A DNA stretch of 60,874 nucleotides, taken from UHGV virus genome UHGV-0342847. One strand, written 5' to 3'. This document shows, in pieces, positions 6,359 through 51,009 of this stretch (the stretch's first letter is position 1; every line of letters starts with the position of its first letter). The notes under the pieces are model-generated. The model searched no databases. It had not been told where the DNA came from and saw only the letters and a list, made by a program, of their open reading frames with translations. The DNA comes from a virus. The position numbers and the translations under genes are program-made.

Positions 6359-7082
6359 TCTCCAGTCTGCGCTGCCATTCGGCGCGCTGTTCGTCAAAAC
6401 GGCGGTTAACTTCTTTCATGCGCACTGCATGCCGTTCCCGGCGATCGGCATCTTCCTGCTGCTTTGTGATTGCCATCCGTTTAGATAGTTCACGCAGGCC
6501 TTCGGCAATCTTCTGCCGATTACTGTTAGCGACTTCCGTGGAGAGGTTAGGCAGCGCCAGGTGCTCAGTGCGTGGAGGTGGAAGTAGGCCTTGCTGCTGG
6601 GCTTTCTGCTCAACTAGCTGACGCAGTCCTCCATCCCATCCAGCTGACAGTTCGTTATGTGGCGTCTTCCCTGACGCCTTAGCTGTTGCCACGTTGCGAT
6701 CGTAGGCGGCGATGAAGGCCATGCGAGCGCCTACCTTGTCACCAGACTCCATGAGTGGAAGCGCAACATTCCACGCCTGTTTCGCCTCTTCGGTCCACAC
6801 AACAGAATTACGCTCGTCAACAGCAGGCAGCGCCAGCGACCACGCCTCATTTGCCGAAAGCCAGCCCCCTTGCGGGGCCAGCAGATCGATAATCGCCTTC
6901 AGAGTCAGCTTGCCGGTGATCTCTTTACGGCAGCGCGTGAGCGCCACCATAACATCACTGAAGTTGTACTCAGCCAGATCCTGAGCCATCACCATGACAG
7001 CAGTCGGCTTCATCTCATGCCCCATGACCTCAGCTGTGACCACCAGCTGCTGCATGACGCGCTCTACCTCTTGCGGGTTCAC
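6345..7082 (-). CDS. putative replication protein (lambda P-like / helicase-loader position)
   Basis: 245 aa immediately downstream of, and overlapping, the O-like gene. No Walker motif is clear, so the call is from position plus weak resemblance. Confidence 0.4.
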   Translation of the reverse strand: MNPQEVERVMQQLVVTAEVMGHEMKPTAVMVMAQDLAEYNFSDVMVALTRCRKEITGKLTLKAIIDLLAPQGGWLSANEAWSLALPAVDERNSVVWTEEAKQAWNVALPLMESGDKVGARMAFIAAYDRNVATAKASGKTPHNELSAGWDGGLRQLVEQKAQQQGLLPPPRTEHLALPNLSTEVANSNRQKIAEGLRELSKRMAITKQQEDADRRERHAVRMKEVNRRFDEQRAEWQRRLENDDE

Positions 7083-8585: not shown

Positions 8586-8938
8586 TTTGCTTCCTTAGCC
8601 GCCTTGCGACGGCGATCCATCAGTACGATAAAACGATATGCTGGGAATTTTGGTGCGCCGTATTCCTGCACCACTTCACGCAGGTGCGCTTTCAGATCAC
8701 CAAAAGCGAATGTCTTCGGTGTGTCTTCGACGCCAGGCCAGTCTGTTTCTTCCAGCAACCAATCACGGGCAGCTTCACAATGCCCGCAAACCTTAAAGCT
8801 CTGACCGCGACCATCCCACACGCCGGATGTGTATTCGTAGACATCCAGCGGTTCGATGATCCCGTGGCACTCGCAGCATTTGTGCTCTTTGCGTGCCACG
8901 CGGTGCGTAACCGTCGAGCATGATGCAAATTCAGTCAT
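8582..8938 (-). CDS. hypothetical zinc-ribbon-like protein
   Basis: HKCCECHG...VCGHCEA cysteine pairs. Confidence 0.4.
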   Translation of the reverse strand: MTEFASCSTVTHRVARKEHKCCECHGIIEPLDVYEYTSGVWDGRGQSFKVCGHCEAARDWLLEETDWPGVEDTPKTFAFGDLKAHLREVVQEYGAPKFPAYRFIVLMDRRRKAAKEAK

Positions 8939-10208
8939 GACTGGCCTCCGCTATTGCTTTCATGATGCGATCGCCTATCCAGCGCATTACCGGTACTGCC
9001 ATGCTGTTTCCGATGGCTTTGTATCGGTGTCCGTTGGCCACTGGCTTACCCAGATATTCAATCAACGTGTGGCCATCAGGAAAACCCTGCAGGCGCTCGC
9101 ACTCTATTGGTGTCAGACGGCGAACGGAAAGCGGGTAAGTCACGGCCAGATCTGTAGCATCCTTGTAATCACGCGCCTTGCATGTCGATGCGGTTTCATC
9201 GTCTGCATATTCACCAAACGCGGTCATTCTGAATGCTCGCTGTTGGGAATAAGCCACAGCGCCTTCAAAACCACCGCCTTTCTCCCTTGCCTTTAAGGTC
9301 CCGAACAGTTCGTGTGCGGCGTTCTGTTCTTCGTCAAGACCAATACAAACCAAACCGCTGCCACGCTGGCTGAATAGCTCCTGATTGCTCTGGCCTATTC
9401 CTCCGATGTTGTGTGATTGGTTAAGGGTTGGGTGTGCGTTTGCTGGATTATCCCAGTAGCTACCGACTTTAACGCTACTTCCAGTAGTGGCGGAAGTGAC
9501 TTCCCGCGCTTCTCTGCACGGCGCAGTATCCCTTCGCACGCCTTCTGACTCAAAAAGAACTCTTGCGGGATTGAAGTCTCTTCTAGCACTTGCGACAACA
9601 AACACACGGCGGCGTCGTTGGGCCACTCCGAAATATTGGGCATCAAGTACCCGCCACGCGATTGTTCTTTTGCCTCGAAGCACACAACCAGCGTTTGCCC
9701 AGCGATTCCCTGGTGGCTGTAACTCACAGTCTTCGCCGGCAAGCAGTCCAAGGAAGGCTCCGAAAGCGTTATCTTTGCTGCTGAGCACTCCAGGTACGTT
9801 TTCCCAGACGATAATAGTTGGTGGAAGTCCTGCTGCTGCTCGGCGGTAGTCGATGGCATCCGCTAATTCTCCGTATGAAATTGTGAGTTGACCGCGTGGG
9901 TCGGAAAGGCCAGCGCGAGCGCCAGCAACAGAAAATGCCTGGCACGGCGTGCCGCCAACCAGAATGTCGGGGGCTTCCATTTCTCCTGCGCGCATTTTGG
10001 CTGCGAGTTTGGTCATGTCGCCCAGGTTCGGCACTTCCGGCCAGTGATGAGCGAGAACGGCAGACGGGAAGTCCGGGCCATTCTGGTATTTGTGTTCGGG
10101 ATCGAACTGGGAGAACCACGCAGGGCTAAAGCCAAGCACTTCCCACGCTACGCTTGCTGCTTCGATACCGCTGCACACAGAGCCGTAGCTGATAGTGTTT
10201 GTATTCAT
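8931..10208 (-). CDS. DNA (cytosine-5)-methyltransferase
   Basis: Motif I SVCSGIEAAS, motif IV GTPCQAFS, motif VI VWENVPGVL and motif VIII QRRRRVFVV. Confidence 0.85.
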   Translation of the reverse strand: MNTNTISYGSVCSGIEAASVAWEVLGFSPAWFSQFDPEHKYQNGPDFPSAVLAHHWPEVPNLGDMTKLAAKMRAGEMEAPDILVGGTPCQAFSVAGARAGLSDPRGQLTISYGELADAIDYRRAAAGLPPTIIVWENVPGVLSSKDNAFGAFLGLLAGEDCELQPPGNRWANAGCVLRGKRTIAWRVLDAQYFGVAQRRRRVFVVASARRDFNPARVLFESEGVRRDTAPCREAREVTSATTGSSVKVGSYWDNPANAHPTLNQSHNIGGIGQSNQELFSQRGSGLVCIGLDEEQNAAHELFGTLKAREKGGGFEGAVAYSQQRAFRMTAFGEYADDETASTCKARDYKDATDLAVTYPLSVRRLTPIECERLQGFPDGHTLIEYLGKPVANGHRYKAIGNSMAVPVMRWIGDRIMKAIAEASHD

Positions 10209-10564
10209 TTTGGCTCCTGTGTTTCTGAAATCGCAACACGCACGGCAACGTCGTTCAGCAGCTTTGTAAGGTGCTTAGTTAGGTTGTCGCAGTCGTGCAG
10301 TCTGCTGAATTTCGTCAGACTACCGCCAAGCGCGATAACAGCGTCAGCCGGGCTGTCCAGTTGGAAGGATTTACTGTAATCCTCGTACCACTGTTCGGCC
10401 TTGTAATCGTAATATTTCCCCATCAGATACCAGGAACCGAGGCGGAACTGCATTTCGTAGCTGAAGCCGTTGCCAATCTCACATTCCACGTCATCAACCG
10501 TGAACCAGTCGAGTGAATAGCGGAAGCGCTTAATCTTTACGGTTTTCGCGACCTGCTCTTTCAT
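10205..10564 (-). CDS. hypothetical protein between the two methyltransferase genes
   Basis: 119 aa, no motif recognised. Confidence 0.4.
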   Translation of the reverse strand: MKEQVAKTVKIKRFRYSLDWFTVDDVECEIGNGFSYEMQFRLGSWYLMGKYYDYKAEQWYEDYSKSFQLDSPADAVIALGGSLTKFSRLHDCDNLTKHLTKLLNDVAVRVAISETQEPK

Positions 10565-11697
10565 GCTCCCCCCTTCTTGTTGTCGTTGTCAGCTTTCTTG
10601 TGTGAGAAGGCGATGCGCGCCGATGCGATGGTGGCAAAGTCCGGGTTAAGGTCGATGCCGATGAAGCTAAAACCTTCCTCGATGGCTGCGCGGCCTGTGC
10701 TGCCACTTCCCATCCACGGATCCAGAACCGTACCGCCTGGCTGGGTGATGAGGCGGCAAAGGTATTTCATCAGTGCGATCGGCTTCACAGTCGGGTGATT
10801 GTTTTTCGCGCCGTTAGTGCGACCGGCACCAGCTCGAGGATCGTTCAGGCCTGCGCTACCCTCTTTGCGCCCGCCAGTCATTTCCGATGCGCTGGTGGGC
10901 ATGAACCGCTACAGACCTTCGTCACGCTCTTTCGGCTTGACCTTTGCGCAGTAGAAGAACCGCGCCGCGCTGCCTTTGTCGCCGTGATGCTTGGTACCGA
11001 CACGCTTGCGCAGGCCCAGAACCTGACCAGTTGACGCAGATGACGGTTCATCCCCTGTTACAGGCGCAGCGGCGCCGGCATTTTTAGGGAAGCAGGCGAT
11101 CACTTCATCGCTGCCGTCGTGAATTAGGTTAGCAGGCCATCGTCCATCAGGTGACTGCTCATAATCGCCTGTTGGCTGCGTTCCGTCGCGCTGGTGAGAT
11201 AGAAGTCCACCAGCGCCACCATTGAGCTTTTCGTCTGTTGGGATGCGGCAGGCTGCGATATTCAGTGCGCCTGTGCCGTGCTCTGCCATGTTTTCGGCAA
11301 CGGTTTTCTTGAAAGGCTTACGGGCCATTACGATCGGCTCGTGTGCTGGTTTCAGCGCCGTTCCCCATCCTTCCCAATCACCATCGAGGTTGTGAGACTT
11401 CGGGAATCCACTGCCATAAACCCAGAGGATTTGATCACGGATTTCAAAGCCAGCATCTTCGGCGTTGACAACCAGACGGTGATAGGTTCGGGAACCACCA
11501 AATGCCAGCAGATACCCGCCAGGCTTCAGCACGCGCAGACATTCCTGCCATTGCTCAATTGTCGGGACGTCGTAATCCCATTTTTGGTTCTGGAAGTTCA
11601 GTCCGTACGGTGGATCCGTGACAATGGCGTCAACGGAGTTATCCGGCAGCGTTTTGAGTACGTCTTCGCAGCGCCCTACATGCAATTGATAGCTCAC
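10561..11697 (-). pseudogene. beta-class N6-adenine/N4-cytosine DNA methyltransferase interrupted by a single in-frame TAG (10909-10911)
   Basis: The N-terminal part 10909-11697 carries motif IV IVTDPPYG. The C-terminal part 10561-10902 carries motif I VLDPWMGSGSTG and HPTVKP. Both parts are in the same frame, separated by ...EGL-TAG-RF-MPTS... Confidence 0.7.
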
Positions 11698-12017
11698 TGG
11701 GCATCCTCCGCAACATACAGCAGGGATGCGTCCAGCAGTTCTTCCAGCGGGAAAGCTTGCAGGCTACGGACAACGTGCTGCATGTGCTGCACGTATCGTT
11801 TTGCGCCGTGGGTGTTGATGACGTCCAGAACGGGAATAGGCTTGTTGCGCTGTGCGTACTGCTCCAGCAACCAGGCGTGAATGATACGGGCCTGCTCACT
11901 GATGCCAGCCGCACTACCGGCGACAGGAACAACGCTCTTCATGTGAGGAATGACTTTAACGCCGCCCTTCGCTCGTGGGGGTGACGGTTTAAAGGTGGAT
12001 AACTCAATTCCTTTCAT
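11694..12017 (-). CDS. hypothetical protein
   Basis: Start re-chosen at MKGIEL. The stop overlaps the methyltransferase start. Confidence 0.4.
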   Translation of the reverse strand: MKGIELSTFKPSPPRAKGGVKVIPHMKSVVPVAGSAAGISEQARIIHAWLLEQYAQRNKPIPVLDVINTHGAKRYVQHMQHVVRSLQAFPLEELLDASLLYVAEDAQ

Positions 12018-12212
12018 ACTGTACCTGCAATAAAAAACCGCTCTGGCTTCAGTGGTGACACTCCGCACGCGCAAAACGCGATTGGACACTGAAATCAAAG
12101 CGGTTAGGTCATTATCTTAGCTTAACAGCTTCAGGGTGTCACGCCTGATATGGCCGGTAAGCTATCGAATCGGTGTTACGATCCTGCTCTATCTGTTGCC
12201 AGTTTGACAACA

Positions 12213-14432: not shown

Positions 14433-14732
14433 TTACGCCTGGCCCCAGAGGAAAAAGCCCAGAATGATAAATCCGGCACCGGCCAGAAGAGCGAAAATGC
14501 CAGCCATCGCGAAGATGAAACGACACAGCATTTCATCAATACGATCCCATCCCATGTCCCACTCGTAGAAAATCACCAGCGGATTGTAGAATTTCAGGGA
14601 GAATGCGAACTCTTTACGCCACGCAGCCCAGCCAGGGACTTCATTCTCACGCAGTGGTGCTTTGCCCATCGGATAGATAACCATTCCGATAAGGCAAACG
14701 CCTGCGAGGATTGCCATTATTGCTTCACCCAT
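14433..14732 (-). CDS. two-TM membrane protein next to the immunity region (candidate exclusion/Kil-like)
   Basis: Hydrophobic N- and C-terminal helices. Second gene of the Cro-side operon. Confidence 0.4.
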   Translation of the reverse strand: MGEAIMAILAGVCLIGMVIYPMGKAPLRENEVPGWAAWRKEFAFSLKFYNPLVIFYEWDMGWDRIDEMLCRFIFAMAGIFALLAGAGFIILGFFLWGQA

Positions 14733-15045
14733 TACTCAGCTCCTTAAGAGCACTCTCTAATGCGGAACGCGCAGCTTCAACGCTCAGCGGTTTATCGGAT
14801 TTGATGCGCTGCTCGAAAGCGTGGAACTCTTCGCTATCAATGTCAGTTGGTACGCCCAGTACGTGCTGGAGGTAGACCAGACGGCGAACATGTTCGGGGA
14901 TCGGCGTCCGTCCAATTTCGTACGAACATCCTCGCGTCGTGCTGTACCCGATTGCGCCCCAGAACGCTTTCTGAGATAGCCCCTTTGCAATTCGAAGCTC
15001 CAGGAGCGCTGCGGGGCTAAGATTTTTGTCTTGCATATGATTCAC
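14725..15045 (-). CDS. Cro-like HTH regulator
   Basis: LELRIAKGLSQKAFWGAIGYS is an XRE HTH. It is divergent from the CI-like gene. Confidence 0.55.
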   Translation of the reverse strand: MNHMQDKNLSPAALLELRIAKGLSQKAFWGAIGYSTTRGCSYEIGRTPIPEHVRRLVYLQHVLGVPTDIDSEEFHAFEQRIKSDKPLSVEAARSALESALKELSNG

Positions 15046-15164
15046 CGTGTTGTTATTTCAGAAACATTATGTGCAAAAATAGGATGTGATTGCAAGAACA
15101 GGAGTTGCATTTTCACAACATCGATCATATCAGGAATCAAAAATCACGGAACAGGAGGTTCCAA
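15046..15164. promoter_or_regulatory. immunity region: divergent promoters/operators between the Cro-like and CI-like genes
   Basis: Repeated TTGCAA/TTGCAT/GTGCAA elements and TGTGA...TCACA. SD AGGAGG before the CI-like gene. Confidence 0.35.
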
Positions 15165-15755
15165 ATGTCTATTAACAAACGATATTTTCATGACCTGATG
15201 AAAGACCGCCGCTTATCACTCCGTGAAGTGGCTCGCAGAATGGAAGTGTGGCCCGCTGCATTATCCCGTTCCCTCGATGGAAAGCGGAAGATGCAGATCC
15301 CCGAAGCCGTTGCGCTGGCGCGCATTCTCACGGTCCCGCTTACAGAGGTAATGCTCAACGCCGGGATCGAACAAGTTAAAACCGTAGGCAGGCGTTGCAG
15401 CATTATAGGCCATGTTCATGAGGGTGCTGTTGTTGAACCAGTTCCAGCTGGTGTGATTGAGCGTGTTTCTATTCCTGATGGGCTGGATGACAACGTGGTG
15501 GCTGTGCAGGTACATACTTCAGAAACGCCAGCTGCTTATTCTGATGGATGGATAATATTTCTCGGGCCAGAGGTAGACCCGGCTGACTGCCTTGGCTGTT
15601 ATTCGCTGGTATACGTCGAAGATGACGGCTGGGTACTCGGTACTATTCGGCGTGGTTACTATCCCGGTACATGGAATGTCTTTCTCCCTATGCGGGACAA
15701 CAGAAAGAACGTGCGGATAATCTGGGCGCGCCGCGCAATTCTCACAATTCATTAA
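15165..15755 (+). CDS. CI-like phage repressor (N-terminal XRE HTH plus C-terminal domain)
   Basis: LSLREVARRMEVWPAALSRSLDGKRKMQIPEAVALARILTVPLTEV. The C-terminal roughly 110 aa could not be confirmed as an S24 peptidase. Confidence 0.6.
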   Translation: MSINKRYFHDLMKDRRLSLREVARRMEVWPAALSRSLDGKRKMQIPEAVALARILTVPLTEVMLNAGIEQVKTVGRRCSIIGHVHEGAVVEPVPAGVIERVSIPDGLDDNVVAVQVHTSETPAAYSDGWIIFLGPEVDPADCLGCYSLVYVEDDGWVLGTIRRGYYPGTWNVFLPMRDNRKNVRIIWARRAILTIH

Positions 15756-16320: not shown

Positions 16321-16784
16321 GAACTGACACCTGGAAACCTGAAGAGGTTAAGTTTCTGCTGGATAACAACGGTTCTATGCCCGTCACTGAAATGTCGCGC
16401 CAACTGAAACGCAGCTCAGCAGCAATCAGGACAAAACTGTGTCGTATCGGCGGTAGAGTGAAGCCCTTTGCTAAGTGGTCACGCGCTGAAACTCTCTTTC
16501 TTGAGAGCAATGCAGATCGCATGATGGCTAAAAATATCGCTGCTCATCTGGGGCGAACCACCAGCTCAGTTCTTGGTAAGGCATCGCATCTGGGAATACG
16601 TTTTACGTCAAACAGAAAAATACATAGCGATGAAGATGTAAGGCTCTGCATTGCTCTGCACGCTGATGGTATGAGCATACCCCTGATCGCTGAGAAAATG
16701 GAAATGTCTATCCACACGGTGAAGAGCTTCATCTATCGCTCACACCGCGGTTATCGTGAACTAAAACAGTCCCGTCAGGGATAA
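16317..16784 (+). CDS. DNA-binding protein with three HTH-like repeats (putative regulator)
   Basis: Repeated ...LDNNGSMPVTEMSRQL..., ...MMAKNIAAHLGRTTSSV... and ...MSIPLIAEKMEMSIHTVK... segments. Confidence 0.4.
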   Translation: MRTDTWKPEEVKFLLDNNGSMPVTEMSRQLKRSSAAIRTKLCRIGGRVKPFAKWSRAETLFLESNADRMMAKNIAAHLGRTTSSVLGKASHLGIRFTSNRKIHSDEDVRLCIALHADGMSIPLIAEKMEMSIHTVKSFIYRSHRGYRELKQSRQG

Positions 16785-16792
16785 GGAAAGGT

Positions 16793-17653
16793 ATGAATAA
16801 GTCTGAAATGGTACTGGTGCCTCGCTCTTTACTCGACGCAGTGGCTAGCGCGTTAGAAACTGGAAATCCGGTAGCGAAAACGCTGGAATCAGTCAGAGAG
16901 TTTTATCTCGTTGATGGTAGCGAAGAGCAACCAAGCGAGGCAGTAGTAACCCTGCTCGCAATCGCCTCTCAAGTCGGACTGGATCTGTCCGGACTGCTTC
17001 CTGAAGGTGAGCTTTCAACGGTTATCATCAATGCCATTCGTGGTAGTGCTGATGATTTCACAGACGTCAAAACGTTACAGGAATCTGGCAAATTTACTGC
17101 CAGTGCAGACTGGGCATTAGCTGATGACGGAATAGACCTTGAAGCCGCCGACTTCTCTGACGCGCTGATGTGGTTGAAAGAAGGTAAGCGCGTTCGCCGT
17201 TCTGGGTGGAATGCTGGTGGTCAGTGGGCTGAGCGCATCATAAATTCAGGTATTGTTTTCCGTTCAGAGCTAACTGGAGAAACTTACCAAGTTGCTGATA
17301 GCCTGATCCTGAAAAATGCGCAGGGCATCGTTGTGCAGTGGGTTCCTTCCATTGGCGACCTGATGGCTACCGACTGGCAAGTGTATGAAGGACAGTCGGT
17401 ATTCGTTAATAAAACTGCCCAAGTGCCTCTTTCTAGCGAGCTTGTGAAGCTGGAAGCAGATATTCCACCTCACCAGCTGCGCGTGCTGGAAGAGTTGGCC
17501 CAGCTGACTGATCGCCTGGACAAGCTTACGGCATTCTTTGACACAGACGTTTACCGTTCTCTTGATGTTGACGAGCGCGGGCGCCTGAAAGAGCAGTGCG
17601 CGCTGATGGGCGAGCTGCAGCGCGTTCTGGCTGAGAGGGTGGCAGCGTTCTGA
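16793..17653 (+). CDS. DUF2829-domain protein (Tad2-like candidate) with flanking coiled-coil regions
   Basis: FSDALMWLKEGKRVRRSGWNAGGQW...VVQWVPSIGDLMATDWQVYE matches the DUF2829 pattern. Confidence 0.5.
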   Translation: MNKSEMVLVPRSLLDAVASALETGNPVAKTLESVREFYLVDGSEEQPSEAVVTLLAIASQVGLDLSGLLPEGELSTVIINAIRGSADDFTDVKTLQESGKFTASADWALADDGIDLEAADFSDALMWLKEGKRVRRSGWNAGGQWAERIINSGIVFRSELTGETYQVADSLILKNAQGIVVQWVPSIGDLMATDWQVYEGQSVFVNKTAQVPLSSELVKLEADIPPHQLRVLEELAQLTDRLDKLTAFFDTDVYRSLDVDERGRLKEQCALMGELQRVLAERVAAF

Positions 17654-17886
17654 TGAAAACCGAAGTGGGCCGTGAAGCTGTTTGGCAGCACGCAGAAGAA
17701 GCTGACATTCAGGATATGATCCGCAAGGTAGCGTCACACTTCGATATCGCTGATATAGCGATACATACGCCGGGGAAACTTACTTATGTGCATGAGGCTC
17801 CCCGGAAATACACACGCATAAGACCGTTTGAAAGTGACGTTAAGCTTGACGTCGCCACCGGTCAGTTACTGAGGAAAGGAAAGTGA
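17653..17886 (+). CDS. hypothetical protein
   Basis: 77-aa ORF with ATGA overlap to the upstream gene. Confidence 0.35.
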   Translation: MKTEVGREAVWQHAEEADIQDMIRKVASHFDIADIAIHTPGKLTYVHEAPRKYTRIRPFESDVKLDVATGQLLRKGK

Positions 17887-19244: not shown

Positions 19245-19433
19245 GTGGAAAAATTATCTGTTCAACGCTGCAAGTGCGGCGGTGAAGCAAAAATAAATAT
19301 GACGGTCGAGAGTGGTGTGCAGCGGTTTTATGTTCGTTGCAATGCCTGCGGCCTGACCAGTTCAACCAACAAATCACCTGTGAAAGTGGTAGACCGCTGG
19401 AACGGGAAAAATGAGGAAAGGACTTGTGAATAA
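19245..19433 (+). CDS. Lar-family restriction-alleviation-like zinc-ribbon protein
   Basis: CKCGGEAKI...YVRCNACGL...VVDRWNGKN pattern (CxxGG...CxxC...WN). Confidence 0.5.
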   Translation: MEKLSVQRCKCGGEAKINMTVESGVQRFYVRCNACGLTSSTNKSPVKVVDRWNGKNEERTCE

Positions 19434-20502
19434 ACCACTGGCTTACATCATCGACCTGGACGGCACGCTGTACGATAACAGTCATCGCCAGCACCTGATA
19501 CCGGCAGACCGCAGCAATACCGCTGGCTGGGTGGAATTTAACTGCGCATGTACCGACGACGTGCTGCGCGAGGATATGGCTGACCTGGTTCGCAGCGTCA
19601 TGCTTTCTGGTCGTGAAGTAATTTTCCTCACCGGCCGCGGTGAGGCAGCTGGCGAACAGACAATGCAGCGTCTGCTGAAAGACTTCAATTTCATTGAGCA
19701 GCCGACGCTGATCATGCGCCCGATGGACTGTCATACATCGGCTGCAGAGTTCAAACGCGATGCTGTAAAGCGCATACGGGATTCTAAACGTTGGGCAGGT
19801 TACGACTTGATCGCGCTGGAAGACGATCCTTCAATCGTGGAGGTGATGCGCGGCATTGGAGTCACCGTTCTGCATATCGATAGCAAGTGCTGCACCGTTG
19901 AGAAACCGCACCACAACGGCATGATGCAGCTTTCCAATGAGCTGGCAGACGCAAAATCAGCGCTGCGCCGCCTTAGCGCGTTTGCGCGTTCCCATGCTGG
20001 CGATATCCAGTACACCGGCGATCACCCTATCGCAGTTGCTGAAAAACTGGCTGGGCAGTCGTTCGGTAATGCCGAACAACTGGATACAGCCCCAGCGCAG
20101 TTCGAGTCACTATCCGGTGATAAATCTGTAAGCCAGCCTTGCAATTTTCCAATTGAAATGACGCCTGAAATGATGCGTGCCGTTCAGATTGGCAGTGAGC
20201 TTGGGGCGTACGCCGCCGCCAACTTGTCTGGTGCGTATGGATTATTTGCTGAGTTTTGGGATGTGGCCTGTCGAGCTGCTGGCAACTCTCCGGTAATTCC
20301 GGATGGTTGGATTAATTGCAGAGAGCGGATGCCAGAGGAAGGTCAGGAAATAATCGTCATGGATGTGACGCGAGGAGAAGTTCAGTCTGGGATGATTTAT
20401 CAAAATGGGCGCTTTGTAGATTTCAATGAAGAATCTTACGAGGTGAAAAGCCCATCGCACTGGATGCCACTGCCAGCAGCACCGCAGCAGGAGGTGGTAT
20501 GA
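19411..20502 (+). CDS. HAD-superfamily phosphatase-like N-domain fused to a C-terminal DUF551 domain
   Basis: YIIDLDGTLYD (HAD motif I). The C-terminus has GWINCRERMPEEGQEIIVMD...SHWMPLPAAP (DUF551). Confidence 0.5.
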   Translation: MRKGLVNKPLAYIIDLDGTLYDNSHRQHLIPADRSNTAGWVEFNCACTDDVLREDMADLVRSVMLSGREVIFLTGRGEAAGEQTMQRLLKDFNFIEQPTLIMRPMDCHTSAAEFKRDAVKRIRDSKRWAGYDLIALEDDPSIVEVMRGIGVTVLHIDSKCCTVEKPHHNGMMQLSNELADAKSALRRLSAFARSHAGDIQYTGDHPIAVAEKLAGQSFGNAEQLDTAPAQFESLSGDKSVSQPCNFPIEMTPEMMRAVQIGSELGAYAAANLSGAYGLFAEFWDVACRAAGNSPVIPDGWINCRERMPEEGQEIIVMDVTRGEVQSGMIYQNGRFVDFNEESYEVKSPSHWMPLPAAPQQEVV

Positions 20503-21118: not shown

Positions 21119-21468
21119 TGGGATGCGGATACCAAGGGCATGAGTTCGGTGCTCATTACCCAGACAGCATTTGCTGTGATGGATATTTGTGGGATGCCGA
21201 TAGTGGTGGAGAAGGTTATCTCGATCGCGGAGGCGATATTCCGTGCCCAGAGTGCAATCGCAAGGCGTGGATGGCTTACCACCGCGAAGAGATCATTGAA
21301 TGCGGCATGGAAGAATCTGAGCGTAAGCGCGGCCCTCGGACGGTAAAATATGGCGGATATCCGCGCACTGTCCTCGATGACAAAAAGGCTATGCGAACGA
21401 TCCGGCGCTGGTTGCGCCGTGGATGGTACAAGGGCAAGAAGTTCGACGCTGATCAGTACAAGAGCTAA
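21115..21468 (+). CDS. hypothetical Cys-rich protein
   Basis: CCDGYLWD...CPECNRKAW. Confidence 0.35.
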   Translation: MMGCGYQGHEFGAHYPDSICCDGYLWDADSGGEGYLDRGGDIPCPECNRKAWMAYHREEIIECGMEESERKRGPRTVKYGGYPRTVLDDKKAMRTIRRWLRRGWYKGKKFDADQYKS

Positions 21469-21509
21469 TCGGCCGCAAGACACAACAACAACCCATAAGG
21501 GGATATTTA

Positions 21510-21988
21510 TGTCAGAAACTGAAAACAAGTACGCTTTGCAAGCTCTCGTGGAAGCTAAGCGCCATACTCTGCACTCCATGCTGCTTGATATGGCAGGACA
21601 GGCTGGCGTCAAAAATCTAGCAGCAGTGGATACTAATTCGATCGCTGACCTGGTAAACGCTTCATACCGTCGTTTAGAAAACCCTGATATGGGTGAAGTG
21701 TCTGACGGCTACCATACGTTCAATGAGCTTTATGCTCACCGCGTACGCCTGTTTTCTACCCTGATGCGCGCCTATCCTGATAAATCATGGTGGAGCGATA
21801 CCCACCACGACGGCAGCGTGTGGGATGGGTGGATCATCGCTGGCATCGACACACCAGCGGGAACGGCGACGTATCACCTACCGGTGTCTGAGGTTGACCT
21901 GCTGGGGGCTATTCCCCGCCTTGATCGCGGTAAGGAATGGGATGGTCATACCTCCGATGACGTACTGGAGCGCCTGAAGTCTCTTTAA
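21510..21988 (+). CDS. hypothetical protein
   Basis: Start MSETENKY with SD AAGGGGA. No motif recognised. Confidence 0.4.
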
Positions 21989-22079: not shown

Positions 22080-22283
22080 ATGAAGAAGCGTTATCTCACT
22101 CAGGATGAAGTAGCCGATCGCTACCGTGGACTCATATCGGTGCGAACATTGTGTAATTGGCGCTCCCTTAGAATTGGCCCGCCTTATTGCAAGATCGGTA
22201 AGACAGTTCTCTACGAAGAGGCTGAGCTTGATGCGTGGGATGCGAAGAACACGGTTAAGTGCGCGTCTTCTGTTCGCGATTGA
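22080..22283 (+). CDS. AlpA/excisionase-family HTH protein (putative Xis/regulator)
   Basis: YLTQDEVADRYRGLISVRTLCNWRSLRIGPPYCKIGKTVLYEEAELDAWD. Confidence 0.55.
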   Translation: MKKRYLTQDEVADRYRGLISVRTLCNWRSLRIGPPYCKIGKTVLYEEAELDAWDAKNTVKCASSVRD

Positions 22284-24977: not shown

Positions 24978-26039
24978 ATGCCGAGTTTAACAGACGGACA
25001 AATCAAGAACGCGCTGAAGCGTGTAGCCAAAGCGCAGAAACCTGAAACGCTGGTGGACGGCGAAGGGCGCGGCACCGGTCGTCTTGTTCTGATTATCAAA
25101 CCCCAGCCGACGCGAGTGACGTCGGTCTGGTACGCGCAGCAGTGGAACGATGGCAAGCGCAAGCTGAAGAAGATAGGTGATTACCATCATATCTCGCTTG
25201 CTGATGCCAGAGAGCTGTTTACGCGAGATTTCGCAGGAGCCATCAATAAAGGTTCTTCCATTAAGGTGCAGGGTGATACCCGTCCAGGCACCGTGGGGGA
25301 TTTATTCGAAGCCTATGCCGACTGGCTGCGCGATAGCGGCAAGTCCAGCCACAAAGAGGCCCGTAAAGGCCTGAACAAGATAGCCGACGATCTGGGGCGC
25401 AATAAACTGGCCCGTGACGTTGAGCCTGCCGACGTCGTGAACGTTATCCGTCCCATCTTTGAGCGCGGTAAGCGGTCTATGGCTGACCACGTACGCAGTT
25501 ACATTCGCAGCGCCTACAGCTGGGGGATGAAGAGCGAACACGATTACCGCTCCACCAGCCCGCGTCGCTTCATGCTGGTACATAACCCGGCTGCAGGGAT
25601 CCCCACCGAACCGAAAACTGTCGGCACACGCTGGCTGTCAGAAGATGAATGGTGTGACCTGTATTTCTGGCTGGACGTGCCTGACGTGACAATATTCCCC
25701 GGCTACACCCGCGCTATGCAGTTTCTCATGCTCACCGGCCAGCGCGTAGAAGAGATAGCCCGCCTGCACGTTGACCAGTACGACAAAGCGGAAGGCCTGA
25801 TCGACTGGTCGAAGACGAAGAACGGGAGACAGCACTGCATTCCGCTACCGTCGCTGGCGATTGAGCTGCTGGAGCGTATCACGCCAAATGAGCATGGCTG
25901 GTTTTTCCCGTCAGCGATGGACCCAGAGAAGCCAGTAAGCCACGGTTCACTGTACGCGTTCCTGTGGCGGCAGCGTGACCGCGGCATACTGCCAGACAGC
26001 ACTAACCGCGATCTGCGCCGCATTAAGATTGTTGCATAA
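24978..26039 (+). CDS. int: P4-type tyrosine integrase, apparently lacking the C-terminal catalytic-Tyr segment
   Basis: N-terminal arm-binding region (DUF4102-like). Box I MLTGQRVEEIARL, the K hairpin SKTKNGRQH, and FPSAMDPEKPVS. The ORF stops 5 codons after an RDLRR (HDLRR-like) box, with no downstream Tyr. Confidence 0.75.
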   Translation: MPSLTDGQIKNALKRVAKAQKPETLVDGEGRGTGRLVLIIKPQPTRVTSVWYAQQWNDGKRKLKKIGDYHHISLADARELFTRDFAGAINKGSSIKVQGDTRPGTVGDLFEAYADWLRDSGKSSHKEARKGLNKIADDLGRNKLARDVEPADVVNVIRPIFERGKRSMADHVRSYIRSAYSWGMKSEHDYRSTSPRRFMLVHNPAAGIPTEPKTVGTRWLSEDEWCDLYFWLDVPDVTIFPGYTRAMQFLMLTGQRVEEIARLHVDQYDKAEGLIDWSKTKNGRQHCIPLPSLAIELLERITPNEHGWFFPSAMDPEKPVSHGSLYAFLWRQRDRGILPDSTNRDLRRIKIVA

Positions 26040-29287: not shown

Positions 29288-32200
29288 CTAGTCGTAAATT
29301 CTGGGTGCTTGTTCCTCCAGAATTCGTTCGCGCAGCTTCCGATTGTAGCGCATTCCACCCGTCGCGCTCTCAGCATTTTGCGCACGCGTTTTCATGGAAC
29401 TCTTGATGCTCTTGCCTGTGATGGCCTGCTCTGGGTATTTCTCGTTGAACTTAGTGATTTCATCAACGATCTTATCTTTCGCAGTGTCATCGCCTTTCTT
29501 ATCGGCTTTCCAGTACCCATCCATGAGTTTAGAACGCTGGCGCAATATCGTTTGCTGCAGGTTGTAGCCAGCATTGTTGATATCGTACTGCTCTGCCAGT
29601 TTCGCCGGGGTGGAGCCAAGAGCCTGCCGGATAACGTCGCCGTAGCCAACATCATCAACGATCGTGTCGCCTTTCAGGTTCGTTGCACCTTCTGTGGCGT
29701 AACGGTAAGCCTTCATCGGATCCTTAACCGCTTTCGGCATCATCGTTTCAATGCCGCGGTAGGTTTCTCCCTGTTTCATGAGGTTGAAGCCACGGAAGAT
29801 ATTGCTGGCGATCGACGGCGTAGCCCCCAGCAGCTGAGACTGCCAGTATTCAAACTCGCTTTTCCCTTCCAGCTCTGTAGATGGGGAACGGAACCAGAGA
29901 TCGCGCATCCCCAAGGATTCAGACTGGCTGGTGCCGGTCACGTAACCCGGCACGCCATCGAGGATAATACCGGTCATCATCGGGCCAAGCGCTTCGACCA
30001 TGTTCTTTTTCAGCTCCTGCTCTGGGTCTTTGTCATCATCCATGAACATAGAGGCCAGGGCAAACACGATACCAGCTCCCCACGTTCCAGCCAGGCCAGC
30101 GCCAAGCATCATCATTCCTGTGATACCGGCCAACTGGATCCGCGCCTCTCTCTTCGCTGCCGGGCTATCTCCTTTCACCGACTGGTGAATATCGCGGAAC
30201 AGACGATACAGCATGTTGATCGAGTAGTTACGGAAGACCAGTGCCACCTTCATCATATCGTTGTGCATGACACGAGGACGGCTGTTGTTCTGGTAGTCGA
30301 AATGGGTTTTCCACGTCAGATCGTTAGCTGCTTCAATCGCTTTCTGGTGGCTAAGGCCTTTGGCGCGCGCCATACGGTACGCCATCAGCACAGTGACCTC
30401 GCGGTTGATGCGCTCTGTATGGTGGAATGCCCACGACGCAGCAGCCATCAGGCGAGTTTTCAGCGGGCTGTAGTCAATGCCAGTTTCGCCAATGCTCGCC
30501 AGGTCATGCGCCTGCGTACGGTCAATGATGCCGATATCATAAGCAGCCTGAATCGCCTTCTTCTCGTCGGCGGTCAGGTTTTTGCTTTCACCGATAGAGC
30601 CTTTACCACGCACCAAATCGGAAGATGCGCGGGCAAACTGATTAATTGCCCGGGTAAACCCTTTCGCCGTTCCGTCGTACGCAGCCATCACCGGAATACC
30701 AATCATCGGCGTCTGGGCAAGGTTTCTAATTGCCGTGATAGGTGACGCAGCCATGAACCAGAGGAATGCCGCGCTGGTGAGCTTAGTCGCAATCGATCCA
30801 CCTGTCGGGTTCATGATGTACTGGTGTCGTTTCTCCATTTCGTTGACAACCAGACCGTCGCGAACAGGATCCTTCGTCTTGCCAGCCTCTTCGCGGGCAG
30901 CGTCCAGAGCCTCTTCCATATCGAAGGTGTACTTCAGGCGCGCCAGTTGGTGTGCGCTATGGAACATCTGATTACCAAATGCCCGCAGCGCGTCAGCGTT
31001 GTACCCCTTGCGGCCAGTACGGTGGATACGGTTTTTACGGATGGAGAAATCCGGCAGGCTTTCCAGATAGCGCTGCCACACCTCATCCTTCACGGTTTCG
31101 GCGTTTGGCAGGTCAGCCAGAATGTCTTCGACGTCGGCCACAAAGTTAGCGTCTACTGCTTTGCGGGTCGTCATACTGTCGTCCAGCGCGCCAACCTGCA
31201 CCGTATATTTCGGGTTTTCGCGCATCAGCTGAGCAAATTCACGCTGTTCACGGGCAGATTCAAAGCGGCTGAATGACTCGACCTTTCCGGATTCCTTATC
31301 GCGCACGGTGACAAACAGGTTTCCGAAGCGAGCCAGCGGGAAGTATGGCCCCTGCAAGCGGTTCATTTCGAACTGCGTACGCAGTTGGGTGATACGTGCC
31401 TTACGGTTCCATGCTGTCTTCGTCTTGGCGATTTTCAGCTTTTTATCTGCTTCGGCCTGGGCATCTGCTTTCTCCTGCCCGGTCAGACCTTCATCAACGA
31501 TACGCTGCAGATCGGCGCGGTGCTCACGCTCAGCGCGTTTGATGCGCACGTTAATGGCCTTCTCCATGTTGCCCAGTAGGGTTTTCTCGTACTCGTTGGT
31601 GATTTCCGTATAGGCGTCACGAACTTCCTTGAAGATTTCCTGGCCTTCTCCGGACAGCTTCTTATAACGGGCGTTCAGATCACCCCATGCTGAATACCGG
31701 AGATCATCCTGTGCCGCTTTCGCCACCAGCTCCAGTTCTTGCTCGCTGCCAGCGGCAACGGTACGCAGAGCATCACGATCCCGGTCAGTCATCATCGGTT
31801 CAAACGATTCAGACGGGTCTACCTGGGAAATGGTGGCGTCGTGCATCAGATCCATCAGCTCGACGTTTTCAACCGGATGCAGTACGCGGTACTTCAGCCA
31901 TTTCTGCGCCGTTCCGTCAGTCTTCGAATGCCATTTGTTACGCATGGCGTCCATTGACTGCTTCAGAGACATGTATTTAACCAATGACAGGATGTTTTTT
32001 CCCAACTCCGTTACCAGCGGGCGAAGCGGCAACAGCCCCAGACCATGCTTCATTGAGTCAGTAATCTTGTCAGCAGGCAGGTTTTTGAGGCGATCCCACC
32101 AGGTGCGTACCTTCGCGTTGTCCTGCGCTTCGGTTGGGATGTTAGGGTCCGGCTCCATGCCAGAGCGCAGGGATTGCAGGTCTGGAGACTGATAGTCACC

Positions 32201-35200
32201 AAACTGATTAACCAGACCATACATATCATCGCCGGTGCGGTTGATAATCTGGTTGTTCACAAACTTGCCGTCACCGGCCAGAACGGAATCCAGAGCCTCC
32301 ATTACCGCGCTCGGGTCGTCGCCTTTGGCACCCAGGATAGAGCGGATTTTCGCGATGATCTGCTTCATCACTTCAACAGCGCGATCCACCCATGTTTTCG
32401 GTGCATCACCGCGGGCCTTACGCTCTGCGATGATACGCGCGCCGTTCTCCGCCCAGTATTCAGACGGGGAAGCGTACTGGTAATCGCCTGGCGGCAACTC
32501 TCCAGTAGCAAATGCCTGTCGAGCACGCTCCAACCCCTCTTTATCGCCGTACATACCAGCAACCAGATCCGCTAACAGGTGCTCGCGACGGGTATCCCCG
32601 GCGTCTGCATATTCCTGCATGCGAGCTTCAAGTGCCTGCGTCCACTCTTTTGCAATGGCTTCCTGCACGTTCCGCGGCAGCATGCGCTCCATGTGGTGCA
32701 TGATTTCGTGCGTTGCGGTATTGGCATCGGTCGTTCTTACCGGCGCACCATTACGGGCAAAATCGCTGAAGAGAGTAATCAAACGGTTAGGAACGTTGTA
32801 GTTACCGGCTGGCAGTGAATCCCCTCCGCGGGCCAGCTCGATGTTCAGTGAGTTAGCGATGTGCGGATACTGACGAACCAGCCACTGAGCCAACTGCGCC
32901 CCTTCTTTGCTGTATACCCCGCTAATTTCAGCAGCACGCAGGGTAGCAAGAACTTTCTCCTGGTTTGTGGTAGCTGTGCGGTTCTGGAATTCGATACGGG
33001 ATACCAATTCAGCAAATTTATCAGCCGGGATAGCTTGGCTTTCTTGCCCGCGCATACGGGTAAGAGCTGCAATATCGTCAGCAGATGCCTGGCGCTGGTC
33101 GTTCGTGAATGCCGGAAGTTGTTCTCCCTGCGGCTCACGGTACATCGTTTCGCTGATCTCGTAGTCCTTGTTGCGCCCTTTGTTGTCCACAAAGCCAAAG
33201 CGCTTATAGAACTCATTGAGACGCGACTTGTTACCGCCAAAGTCACTGGACGGTGACAGCGCTACAGTTTTTCCGTTGGCATCGGCCCAGTTGGTAATCT
33301 GCTGCATGATAGCCGTACCGGTTCCAAGATTTCTGGAATCAGATGGCAGTTCGATGCGTTGCAGTGTCACAACATTACCGGTTCCCGTGAGGCTGAGTTT
33401 CAACCCGGGATACTGTGCTTTCAGCTGGTCTGCAAACTCTCGTGTGGTTTGCTCACGACGGAAAGACGGCAGGTCGCTCATCTGCTGCTGGCGACCTTCA
33501 CGATCGCTAACAGACAGGTCTTCAATCTGGTCAAACAGATCGTTGATGCTGTTGGCATTGCTCAGGTCTTCCTGCTGGGTCTGCGGTGCCTGATAGTCCT
33601 CGCTGGTGTTCTTCTCCAGTACTAGGACGCGGGTATTAACCTGTGTACCGGCGCGTTCAAACGTGGATCGCGGCATCCAGATATCTGCTACCAGATGAAT
33701 ACCGTTCTCTTCGTTGTCGCGCATAAACTGGTTAAAACGCTGGTCAGCCAGACCACCGCGCGGCACCAGCGCCACGATGCGACCGCCTTCACGAAGGTGC
33801 TGCACTGCTTTCGATACGTGATCGTAGGCAGTTTTCCCACCCATGCCGTAAGGCGGGTTCATAACGATAGCGTCGTACTTGTTGGTGCGGTTCAGGTCTT
33901 CAAAGCGACTGTTAACGATACGTGCCACGCCATTCACCAGCGCAGCGCGCTGTGACAGGTTCAGGGAAGGTTCAACCATCGTCACGTCAGTCTGTGCAGG
34001 GAAGAAGCGAGCGATCGCGCCGTGACCAGCTGACGGCTCCAGCACTTTGTCGCCTGGCTTAATGCCAGCCCATTCTACCATCTTCATGCCCACCGGTTCC
34101 GGCGTGGCGTAATAGTCCACCCCTTCGCGGTTATCCCTGCTCTTACTGTTCTTCTGCTGGGCGTAGTAGTAGGACTTCGCCTTGTCGAACTCAGAGATCG
34201 TATTGCTGTCCCGCTGGTCTGCTGCCTTGCCGCCTTTCCCGTCAGACTTACTCGCAGTAATAGGTGCTGCATCCTGATAGGAATTGATGAAAGACTGCTT
34301 CAGAGCACGGGAATCCGGCCCCATGGCGAGGTTTTCAGCGGTAGATGCACGCTCTGCAAGTTTCGATGCGAACGCGCTGGCTTCCCACGCTGTGCCGGTT
34401 GTCATGTATCGGAAAATAGCGTCAGAAGCCTGGCCGGTGCGATAGATGCGCCCCTCAAGCTGGATCGCCTTCGTCGGCTGCGTCGGCAGGCCAAGGTTAA
34501 TCTCTACGCGCTGGTGCTTGCCGCTGGTGTCGTGAACGCTGACACCCTCACGCATAGCGTCAGACTGGGCAATCAGGATGTTCGGCCCTGTCAGATCGTC
34601 GTTGAACTTATCCGCATTCGCTCGGCGCTTAGACTTCGGCACCGTACCGTTAAAGGTCATCGCATTCGGGAACGCCGCCAGCAGGGTATTCAGTGCAGAG
34701 TCAAGCCCGCTGAAGTTAATGCGGAACAGTGGCCTTTGGAACAATTCACGGGCAACCTGGCGCAAAGCCGGATCCATATCCTTCAGAGATTCAGCAAACG
34801 GATTGAAGCCGCCGCCCTGGTTGTAGTCGTGAACTACCAGAACCTTACGGCCTAACGCGAGGTGTTGCTTAATGATCGGGATAGCGGCTCGGGCCTTCAT
34901 CGACTCCAGAAGGAACATTTTGCGCTGGTGGTCGAAGGTATCCATTACCGCACTGTAGATATTGCGGTACATGCCATTCTCGCCGCTGTTCAGGTACTCC
35001 AGAGCCTGATCAAGCTTCTTGCCCGCGGCATCGTCAATCAGGACGAATTTGCGGTCGTAGTCGAATGGAACATCGAGGGAACGGCCAATCAGAGCACCGG
35101 TATCTTTCAAATACTGGTTGAAGTTCTGCTCCATCAGCTCGGTGTTAACCTCAGCATCAGGGCGAGTCAGCCGGTTGTACCGCATGCGGTAGCCGAAATT

Positions 35201-50984: not shown

Positions 50985-51008
50985 AACCCCGCCGAAGCGG
51001 GGTTTTTT
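50985..51008 (-). terminator. bidirectional intrinsic terminator between the two tailspike genes
   Basis: AACCCCGC-cgaa-GCGGGGTT with T-runs on both strands. Confidence 0.45.
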
Positions 51009-51009
51009 A

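Follow-up and report, generated by a model that had tools for sequence, protein, structure and literature searches.

A temperate phage gene predicted to encode a Tad2-Sequestin dual sponge, and the reassortment of its modules among relatives

The virus genome UHGV-0342847, analysed here over its whole length of 60,874 nucleotides (the window), carries a complete open reading frame (ORF) of 286 amino acids (aa) in which, with no internal stop, a Tad2-like domain (120-197) is followed by a Sequestin domain (225-284), both with the ligand-contact residues of their characterised relatives. The features of this putative sponge gene and of its surroundings are collected in Table 1. Its Shine-Dalgarno-like sequence, AAGGAAAGG, adjoins the stop codon (16782-16784) of an upstream gene with a sigma70_r4-helix-turn-helix (HTH) product, and its own TGA stop overlaps the start codon of the gene that follows, an ATG at 17653 (TGATG, 17651-17655): this arrangement fits a translationally coupled operon. 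The gene belongs to a rightward operon beginning at a divergent pair of HTH regulators, and the order sigma70_r4-HTH gene, sponge gene, conserved 77-aa gene is kept in six related contigs of 61-62 kb. A promoter and terminator scan gave fewer sites than in shuffled sequence and was uninformative on the timing of expression.

Table 1. Features of the sponge gene and of other genes in the window (pLDDT, predicted local distance difference test)
Feature	Position	Strand	Remarks
Complete ORF	16793-17653	+	286 aa plus stop; open frame with N-terminal orphan module, Tad2-like domain, linker and Sequestin domain
Shine-Dalgarno-like sequence	16783-16791	+	AAGGAAAGG; read from the sequence, upstream of the ORF
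N-terminal orphan module, aa 1-115	16793-17137	+	Acidic, net charge -13
Tad2-like domain (PF11195, old DUF2829), aa 116-200	17138-17392	+	Pfam, PDB sequence matches, Foldseek, contact-residue mapping
Variable insertion cassette in Tad2 domain, ~aa 132-172, type mid1	17187-17308	+	Unaligned with locus L006
Flexible linker, aa 201-224	17393-17464	+	Element QSVFVNKTAQVPLSSELVKLEA; pLDDT <50 for aa 202-221
Sequestin domain (PF21825, crAss001_48), aa 225-286	17465-17650	+	Two-helix hairpin with R230, E234, Q268, R282
WDGH-domain protein	21350-21988	+	PF25311, E=1.5e-39; probable start at Met54; window occupant of second variable slot
HTH_17 gene	22080-22283		67 aa, conserved; directly downstream of second variable slot
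Lar-like restriction-alleviation ORF	19245-19433	+	phrog_599, weak, E=7e-6
Polynucleotide kinase-phosphatase (PNKP)-type haloacid dehalogenase (HAD) phosphatase	19411-20502	+	C-terminal DUF551; directly after Lar-like ORF
C-5 cytosine methylase	8931-10208	-	E=4e-38; orphan, leftward early arm
N6/N4 methylase	10909-11697	-	E=2e-13; orphan, leftward early arm
RsaL-like HTH_92 regulator	14725-15045	-	Divergent HTH pair
Repressor-like protein	15090-15755	+	221 aa; divergent HTH pair
Tyrosine integrase	24978-26039	+	With arm-binding domain
Giant protein ORF	29288-41431	-	4047 aa
ORF with tailspike-like segment	51010-53511	-	Segment at 50985-52400

A first-pass annotation of the same DNA, made by a model without database searches, had proposed that the gene encodes a DUF2829 protein, possibly a Tad2-like sponge for a signalling molecule. 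The domain assignment was borne out: the translation, with the two strings quoted for it (FSDALMWLKEGKRVRRSGWNAGGQW, aa 121-145, and WVPSIGDLMATDWQVYE, aa 183-199), matches PF11195, the former DUF2829 now renamed 'Tad2-like', with 65.9 bits for a cut-off of 25 (E=4.9e-18, aa 120-197, profile positions 2-72 of 73). The annotation was also correct in taking DUF2829 as the fold of Tad2 (Yirmiya et al.). A search of PDB sequences with the domain returned ModTad2 (2e-10), SPO1 Tad2 (3e-5) and, weakly, SptTad2 and HgmTad2/AcrIIA7. In an AlphaFold2 model built from 54 homologues, residues 120-200 have a pLDDT of 80-89, and the domain is made of a helix (121-129), strands between 134 and 182, a short helix (187-191) and a last strand (194-197). 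The comparison with known Tad2 structures, which the annotation had suggested as a check, turned out in favour of the assignment: every one of the top 24 Foldseek matches in the PDB is a Tad2 structure (E from 3e-8 to 4e-5, target-normalised template modelling (TM) score from 0.62 to 0.85), and the best match outside this set is at E=0.06.

The contact residues were mapped onto those of solved complexes. SPO1 Tad2 holds 1''-3' glycocyclic ADP-ribose (gcADPR) mainly through W25, N26, W73 and D79, with adenine contacts by I63, T65 and T78 and water coordination by D67, H71 and S76 (Yirmiya et al.); the corresponding residues in the primary pocket of HgmTad2 are W21/N22 and S90/T92/D93 (Li et al., PMC10680739). 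The predicted primary pocket of the window protein for signals derived from ADP-ribose (ADPR) consists of W139, N140, L173, N175, Q177, V181, W183, S186, G188 and D189. By direct alignment W139, N140, W183, S186 and D189 are the equivalents of SPO1 W25, N26, W73, S76 and D79, and these five are invariant across the characterised proteins aligned; across 54 relatives their conservation is 90% or more. Tested Tad2 homologues were taken, with their sequences and phenotypes, from Table S2 of Hadary et al.: the nearest is Tad2_68 (IMG/VR Ga0135441_1000161; 47.6% identity over 82 aa, E=1.6e-19), which inhibits Thoeris of types I and II and is identical at 10 of the 10 contact positions. From this shared pocket, 3' cyclic ADPR (3'cADPR) and His-ADPR would be the ligands of the primary pocket. 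In the alignment of relatives hardly any change is seen in helix alpha1, which forms the tetramer interface; this is consistent with the homotetramer of Tad2, with its two inter-protomer pockets, but not proof of it.

Within the domain, the part that varies is the insertion between strands beta2 and beta5. In solved Tad2 proteins the dimer interface is built from it, as is a second ligand pocket, which takes cyclic dinucleotides; within the family this insertion varies strongly whereas the gcADPR pocket is conserved, and dinucleotide binding has been linked to insertions of roughly double the length found in SPO1 (Li et al.). As counted from the sequences, there are 32 residues between N140 and L173 in the window protein, versus 36-37 in SPO1 Tad2, MoTad2 and Tad2_68. 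Because this cassette is short, a large dinucleotide pocket of the HgmTad2 type is unlikely. The short insertion may form a second pocket.

Downstream of this domain the annotation had seen a coiled-coil extension. What lies there is instead a discrete PF21825 domain, a family labelled 'Sequestin' in the newer Pfam release (54.7 bits, cut-off 24.8, E=9.7e-15, aa 225-284, profile positions 1-60 of 61): the sponge proposal thus stood as far as profile, fold and contact residues are all of Tad2 type, but it missed a second sponge domain, and the protein is better described as a dual-sponge fusion. The modelled hairpin (helices 226-248 and 259-285, pLDDT 86-97) superposes on the family founder, crAss001 gp48, with a target-normalised TM of 0.97 and a root-mean-square deviation of 0.6 A over 63 aa. 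Sequestin came to light because no other Pfam family is fused as often to Tad2 (60 instances) and Acb4 (91 instances); 10 of the 13 members tested inhibit type I Thoeris, the purified protein depletes 3'cADPR, and the functional residues, in SequestinA numbering, are R8, E12, Q47 and R61, with activity abolished by E12A, Q47A or R61A (Tal et al., bioRxiv 10.1101/2025.07.12.664507). When aa 221-286 of the window protein were aligned with SequestinA-E (sequences from Table S1 of Tal et al.), R230, E234, Q268 and R282 fell in invariant columns, and these four are at least 90% conserved in the 54 relatives. Identity with the tested SequestinC is 45% (E=1e-17). With these residues in place, the domain most likely binds 3'cADPR, i.e. 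the 1''-3' gcADPR of type I Thoeris.

Between the two domains runs the flexible linker. An element of sequence 'EGQSxFVNKTAQVPLSxxLVKLEA', at 17387-17464 (aa 199-224) in the window, recurs in three relatives (P0013, P0006 and P0081) and behaves like a portable linker: it stands at the Tad2-Sequestin junction in the window protein, at an N-module-Tad2 junction in P0013 and at an N-module-Sequestin junction in P0006.

The N-terminal module opens with a conserved head (aa 1-39); next comes an insert (aa 40-86, about 47 aa) that is optional, and the tail (aa 87-113) is acidic. The coiled coil proposed for it found no support, helices being only weakly predicted and the pLDDT staying below 50 in two AlphaFold2 runs (the full protein with 54 sequences, the module alone with 28). 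No match to the module was found in Pfam, PHROG or PDB sequences, nor in the 4047-aa ORF of the window. An exhaustive HMMER search of 1.84 billion representatives gave only about nine genuine clusters, all of the same gene family. Giant proteins (637-4530 aa, with 4-13 matching stretches) also appeared with low HMMER E-values; they were rejected because single repeats score 8-16 bits and the E-values are summed over identical tandem repeats of SpaA type.

Other N-modules stand on the same Tad2(-Sequestin) core in relatives such as P0016, P0031 and P0043 (about 100-120 aa), P0023, P0039, P0081 and P0086, two examples being 'RKKPVVIEAxQ...GDWIIRGxKGELYPCKPDIFAATYE' and 'KCHKVVRAGKI...GGYFVVYEDGYLSYSPADVFEAGY'. 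In some relatives two N-modules are stacked, and the proteins reach up to 455 aa. A scan of the N-terminal parts of ten relatives gave no Pfam match; the domain 'PDB 6E3C', excluded by Hadary et al., was considered as their identity and dropped, there being no PDB match to those modules.

To see how the modules are distributed, 121 sequences (120 homologues and the window protein) were split into modules, which were clustered by global identity with average linkage. This gave 27 N-terminal types, 22 Tad2-insertion cassettes and 11 Sequestin subtypes, and the 48 three-module proteins represent 29 different combinations; the N-type of the window alone is found with six cassette types. Tad2 and Sequestin, in that order, are joined in 49 of the 121 proteins, Tad2 occurs without Sequestin in 53 and Sequestin without Tad2 in 17. 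The comparison with locus L006 shows the exchange at the DNA level: identity of the two genomes is 94.4% as far as the start codon and 91.5% from position 17457 on, and inside the gene only the junctions 17132-17186 and 17309-17390 align. In locus L004 (protein P0006) the Tad2 domain is cleanly absent. Since the variable segment is the beta2-beta5 insertion, the natural swap boundaries fall where the fold divides by function. The characterised protein closest to each cassette differs: Tad2_68 for mid2 (68% identity), SPO1 Tad2 for mid3 and MoTad2 for both mid4 and mid7. The idea that the junctions are dedicated recombination linkers at the DNA level was discarded: the fraction of identical codons is 0.52-0.79 there versus 0.72 in a neighbouring control gene, and with no excess at synonymous sites the conservation of the junctions is explained by protein function.

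We consider the gene to encode a dual-sponge counter-defence protein, in which Tad2 and Sequestin would sequester ADPR signals derived from Toll/interleukin-1 receptor (TIR) enzymes, and put the probability of this reading at roughly 0.8. The protein is a member of the known class of Tad2-Sequestin fusions, to which it adds an N-terminal module; no Tad2 fusion is commoner in Pfam than Tad2-PF21825, which has been catalogued and modelled by Tal et al. After infection, the Tad2 domain would assemble the protein into a tetramer, and the C-terminal Sequestin hairpins would pair into antiparallel dimers, as measured for Ab09 gp59. Such an assembly, a Tad2 core with two Sequestin dimers, would offer two Tad2 primary pockets and four Sequestin pockets. 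By binding and sequestering the messengers made from ADPR by TIR enzymes of ThsB type, it would keep the Thoeris effector from ever being activated, and the Tad2 pocket would widen the coverage beyond that of Sequestin alone.

The solved and tested relatives resemble the window protein in parts. SPO1 Tad2 (gp34.65; PDB 8SME, 8SMF and 8SMG) is phage-encoded too, has the same fold (Foldseek E about 1e-6, target-normalised TM 0.7-0.8) and shares the core contacts W, N, W, S and D; it is, however, a single domain of 89 aa, whereas its counterpart here is embedded at aa 116-200 of 286, with about 28% identity and five changes at adenine- or water-contacting positions (I63L, T65N, D67Q, H71V and T78G, from SPO1 to the window). 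Tad2_68 also stands alone (87 aa), and its mid2 cassette is about five residues longer than the mid1 of the window. The best match among solved structures (E=3e-8, 35% identity) is ModTad2/MoTad2 (PDB 9EIB and 8V3E), a single-domain sponge for His-ADPR and cyclic UMP (cUMP) that does not inhibit type I Thoeris; its pocket has T, D, A and S where the window protein has N, Q, V and G. The characterised Sequestins (SequestinA-J and T4 Y16Q, printed as Y16O; Tal et al. 2025) form the same two-helix hairpin, and the R-E-Q-R spacing is that of SequestinB (4, 34, 14), but they are mostly stand-alone proteins of 60-80 aa, whereas the Sequestin of the window is a C-terminal part behind a linker of about 24 aa.

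Among fusions, the same two domains in the same order are found in a mobile element of Comamonas sp. 26 (Tal et al., Fig. 1B) and in Cronobacter phage JK004, whose protein matches aa 114-283 of the window protein at 46% identity and is without the N-terminal orphan module. The dual sponge gp59 of Pseudomonas phage Ab09, with a C-terminal Sequestin like that of the window, is a tetramer in which the Sequestin domain forms an antiparallel dimer (crystal structure and size-exclusion chromatography with multi-angle light scattering), in line with the general Sequestin model of an antiparallel homodimer with two symmetric 3'cADPR pockets; it is a tight binder of gcADPR and an inhibitor of type I Thoeris, and is encoded in an anti-signalling hot spot (bioRxiv 10.64898/2026.06.04.730250). 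It differs in that the partner of Sequestin is Acb4 rather than Tad2, in its length of 147 aa with no N-terminal extension, and in the N4-like, lytic nature of the phage. An Acb4-Tad2 fusion blocks both Thoeris and the cyclic-oligonucleotide-based antiphage signalling system, CBASS (Tal et al.).

Several points weigh against the dual-sponge reading. Tad2-Sequestin fusions were explicitly removed from the functional survey of Hadary et al., and we found in the literature no experimental test of any such fusion. In the published screens no activity was seen for 3 of the 13 Sequestins and for about 5 of the 18 Tad2 homologues. Most of the likeness to Tad2_68 falls in the conserved flanks and the insertion cassette is a different one, which makes ligand specificity an extrapolation. 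The 115-aa N-module directly precedes helix alpha1, at the tetramer interface, and might hinder tetramerisation; the models are of the monomer only. Lastly, two domains that possibly both bind 3'cADPR look redundant.

That redundancy is also one of the arguments for a protein in which a single domain does the sponging and its partner is mainly an oligomerisation scaffold, for instance a Tad2 tetramer holding Sequestin dimers for avidity, or the reverse. Some tested members of both families are inactive, and same-locus relatives manage without one of the domains (P0006 at L004, without Tad2; the 17 and 53 single-sponge proteins among the 121). Conservation of the contact residues of both domains at 90% or more argues for selection on both pockets, however, and the characterised Acb4-Tad2 and Acb4-Sequestin fusions use both of their domains: a single working sponge seems improbable to us. 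A somewhat better case, although still an unlikely one, can be made for another messenger as the main target of Tad2, be it a CBASS cyclic dinucleotide, the cUMP or cyclic CMP of Pycsar, N7-cADPR or an undescribed TIR product, held in the second pocket and retuned by cassette swaps. HgmTad2 binds the cyclic dinucleotides cGG and cGAMP, MoTad2 binds cUMP and Tad2_71 binds N7-cADPR; the second pocket is built from the very insertion that varies in 22 cassette types, and the cassettes are closest to characterised proteins of different specificities (mid2, mid3 and mid4/mid7). The insertion of the window is too short for the length class to which dinucleotide binding is tied, though, and the primary ADPR pocket is fully conserved; such a target would in any case add to the dual-sponge reading and not exclude it.

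DUF2829 was first linked to Cas9 inhibition, and the protein does have weak sequence matches to the AcrIIA7/HgmTad2 chains 8kbi (E=0.024) and 9kzr (E=0.032) and a fold like that of 8kbi and 8kbk. Type II-A CRISPR-Cas9 is not known as typical of Enterobacteriaceae. No inhibition of Cas9 by HgmTad2 or other Tad2 homologues could be reproduced, in vitro or in vivo (Li et al.), and Yirmiya et al. came to the same reinterpretation, so that we give an AcrIIA7-like activity almost no weight. The acidic N-module could provide an independent third activity, as a nucleic-acid mimic against restriction or as another sponge or decoy, which would make the protein a hub with three functions. Its net charge (-13 over 115 aa) and its position, where 27 unrelated types of module are found in free combination with the sponge domains, speak for it, and Sequestin itself was discovered through guilt-by-fusion. 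Yet the module is without homologue outside its own gene family, without fold and without motif, its low pLDDT may simply reflect a disordered spacer, and short or near-absent forms exist (the N7 type, 28-36 aa): we regard a third activity as rather unlikely.

The genome that carries the gene is essentially complete, with a terminase small subunit encoded in the window, and is that of a temperate podophage of about 61 kb of the SopranoGao/LASTA group, the temperate lifestyle being indicated by the HTH-regulator pair and the tyrosine integrase. The 4047-aa ORF corresponds to the giant protein typical of Bcep22/SopranoGao-like podophages. Its relatives are the Klebsiella phages SopranoGao, LASTA and ZX1 and, at a distance, Burkholderia BcepMigl; isolated phages match it at the nucleotide level in short segments only, and no close relatives were found in complete E. 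coli genomes. Isolated phages in the collection cover at most 59% of the sponge protein, whose relatives are annotated 'hypothetical' or 'DUF2829'. At the nucleotide level the tailspike-like segment shares 92-94% identity with genes for tailspikes or tail fibres in large Salmonella myophages (pertopsoe, LPST94), unlike the rest of the genome, which has almost no close nucleotide relatives; this suggests a receptor-binding module exchanged horizontally. Since it shares 94% identity with the tailspike segment of a Salmonella phage, the host is probably Salmonella.

A second variable slot lies about 4.5 kb downstream of the sponge gene, directly upstream of the conserved HTH_17 gene. In 11 genomes it is occupied by a WDGH protein in three (the window, L001 and L002), an Acb4-family protein (PF13876) in three, an Acb2-like protein in two and unknown small proteins in two, and is empty in one. 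In relatives it was located at 9973-10374 (L001), 9793-10272 (L002), 10545-10868 (L004), 10903-11217 (L005), 10482-10865 (L006), 11584-12030 (L007) and 6628-6900 (L011). No phage literature and no PDB sequence relative was found for WDGH; by its position in the slot, the WDGH protein is a candidate new counter-defence protein. The first-pass annotation had placed the sponge gene next to other anti-defence-like genes, which is partly supported: the neighbourhood holds the Lar-like ORF, itself a weak match, the PNKP-type phosphatase and the WDGH protein in the slot used by Acb2 and Acb4, and two methylases lie in the left arm. Relatives have MT-A70 and C5 methylases in the same place as these orphan methyltransferases, which probably serve self-protection against restriction.

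On a broader scale, the locus may be a plug-and-play counter-defence gene, in which the conserved junctions in the coding sequence, IDLEAADFSDALMWLKEGKRV, WVPSxGDLMATDWQV and PPHQLRVLEEL, allow N-module, Tad2 second-pocket cassette and Sequestin subtype to be swapped independently, so that the signals absorbed are rapidly retuned, and in which the 27 orphan N-types, like WDGH, are undescribed anti-defence domains. We hold this as a tentative proposal, possible but short of probable; if it is true, undescribed anti-defence domains could be discovered by guilt-by-fusion or guilt-by-position.

The gene itself will not surprise a specialist; what deserves following is the shuffling of cassettes between backbones that are nearly identical, together with the orphan N-modules and the WDGH protein in its slot. 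Concrete candidates for new anti-defence families, and cheap ones, are these N-modules and WDGH, the protein that takes turns with Acb2 and Acb4 in the slot; genes now annotated 'hypothetical' or 'DUF2829' could be renamed. More can be learnt from the comparison of relatives than from this one gene: genomes that, between flanks of 91-94% identity, differ in their Tad2 cassettes or N-modules or are without one of the sponge domains are a natural experiment on the segment that sets specificity. If the protein works as proposed here, it would add a natural example to the small set of multi-sponge fusions, and one early gene would let a temperate enterobacterial phage neutralise at least two types of Thoeris.

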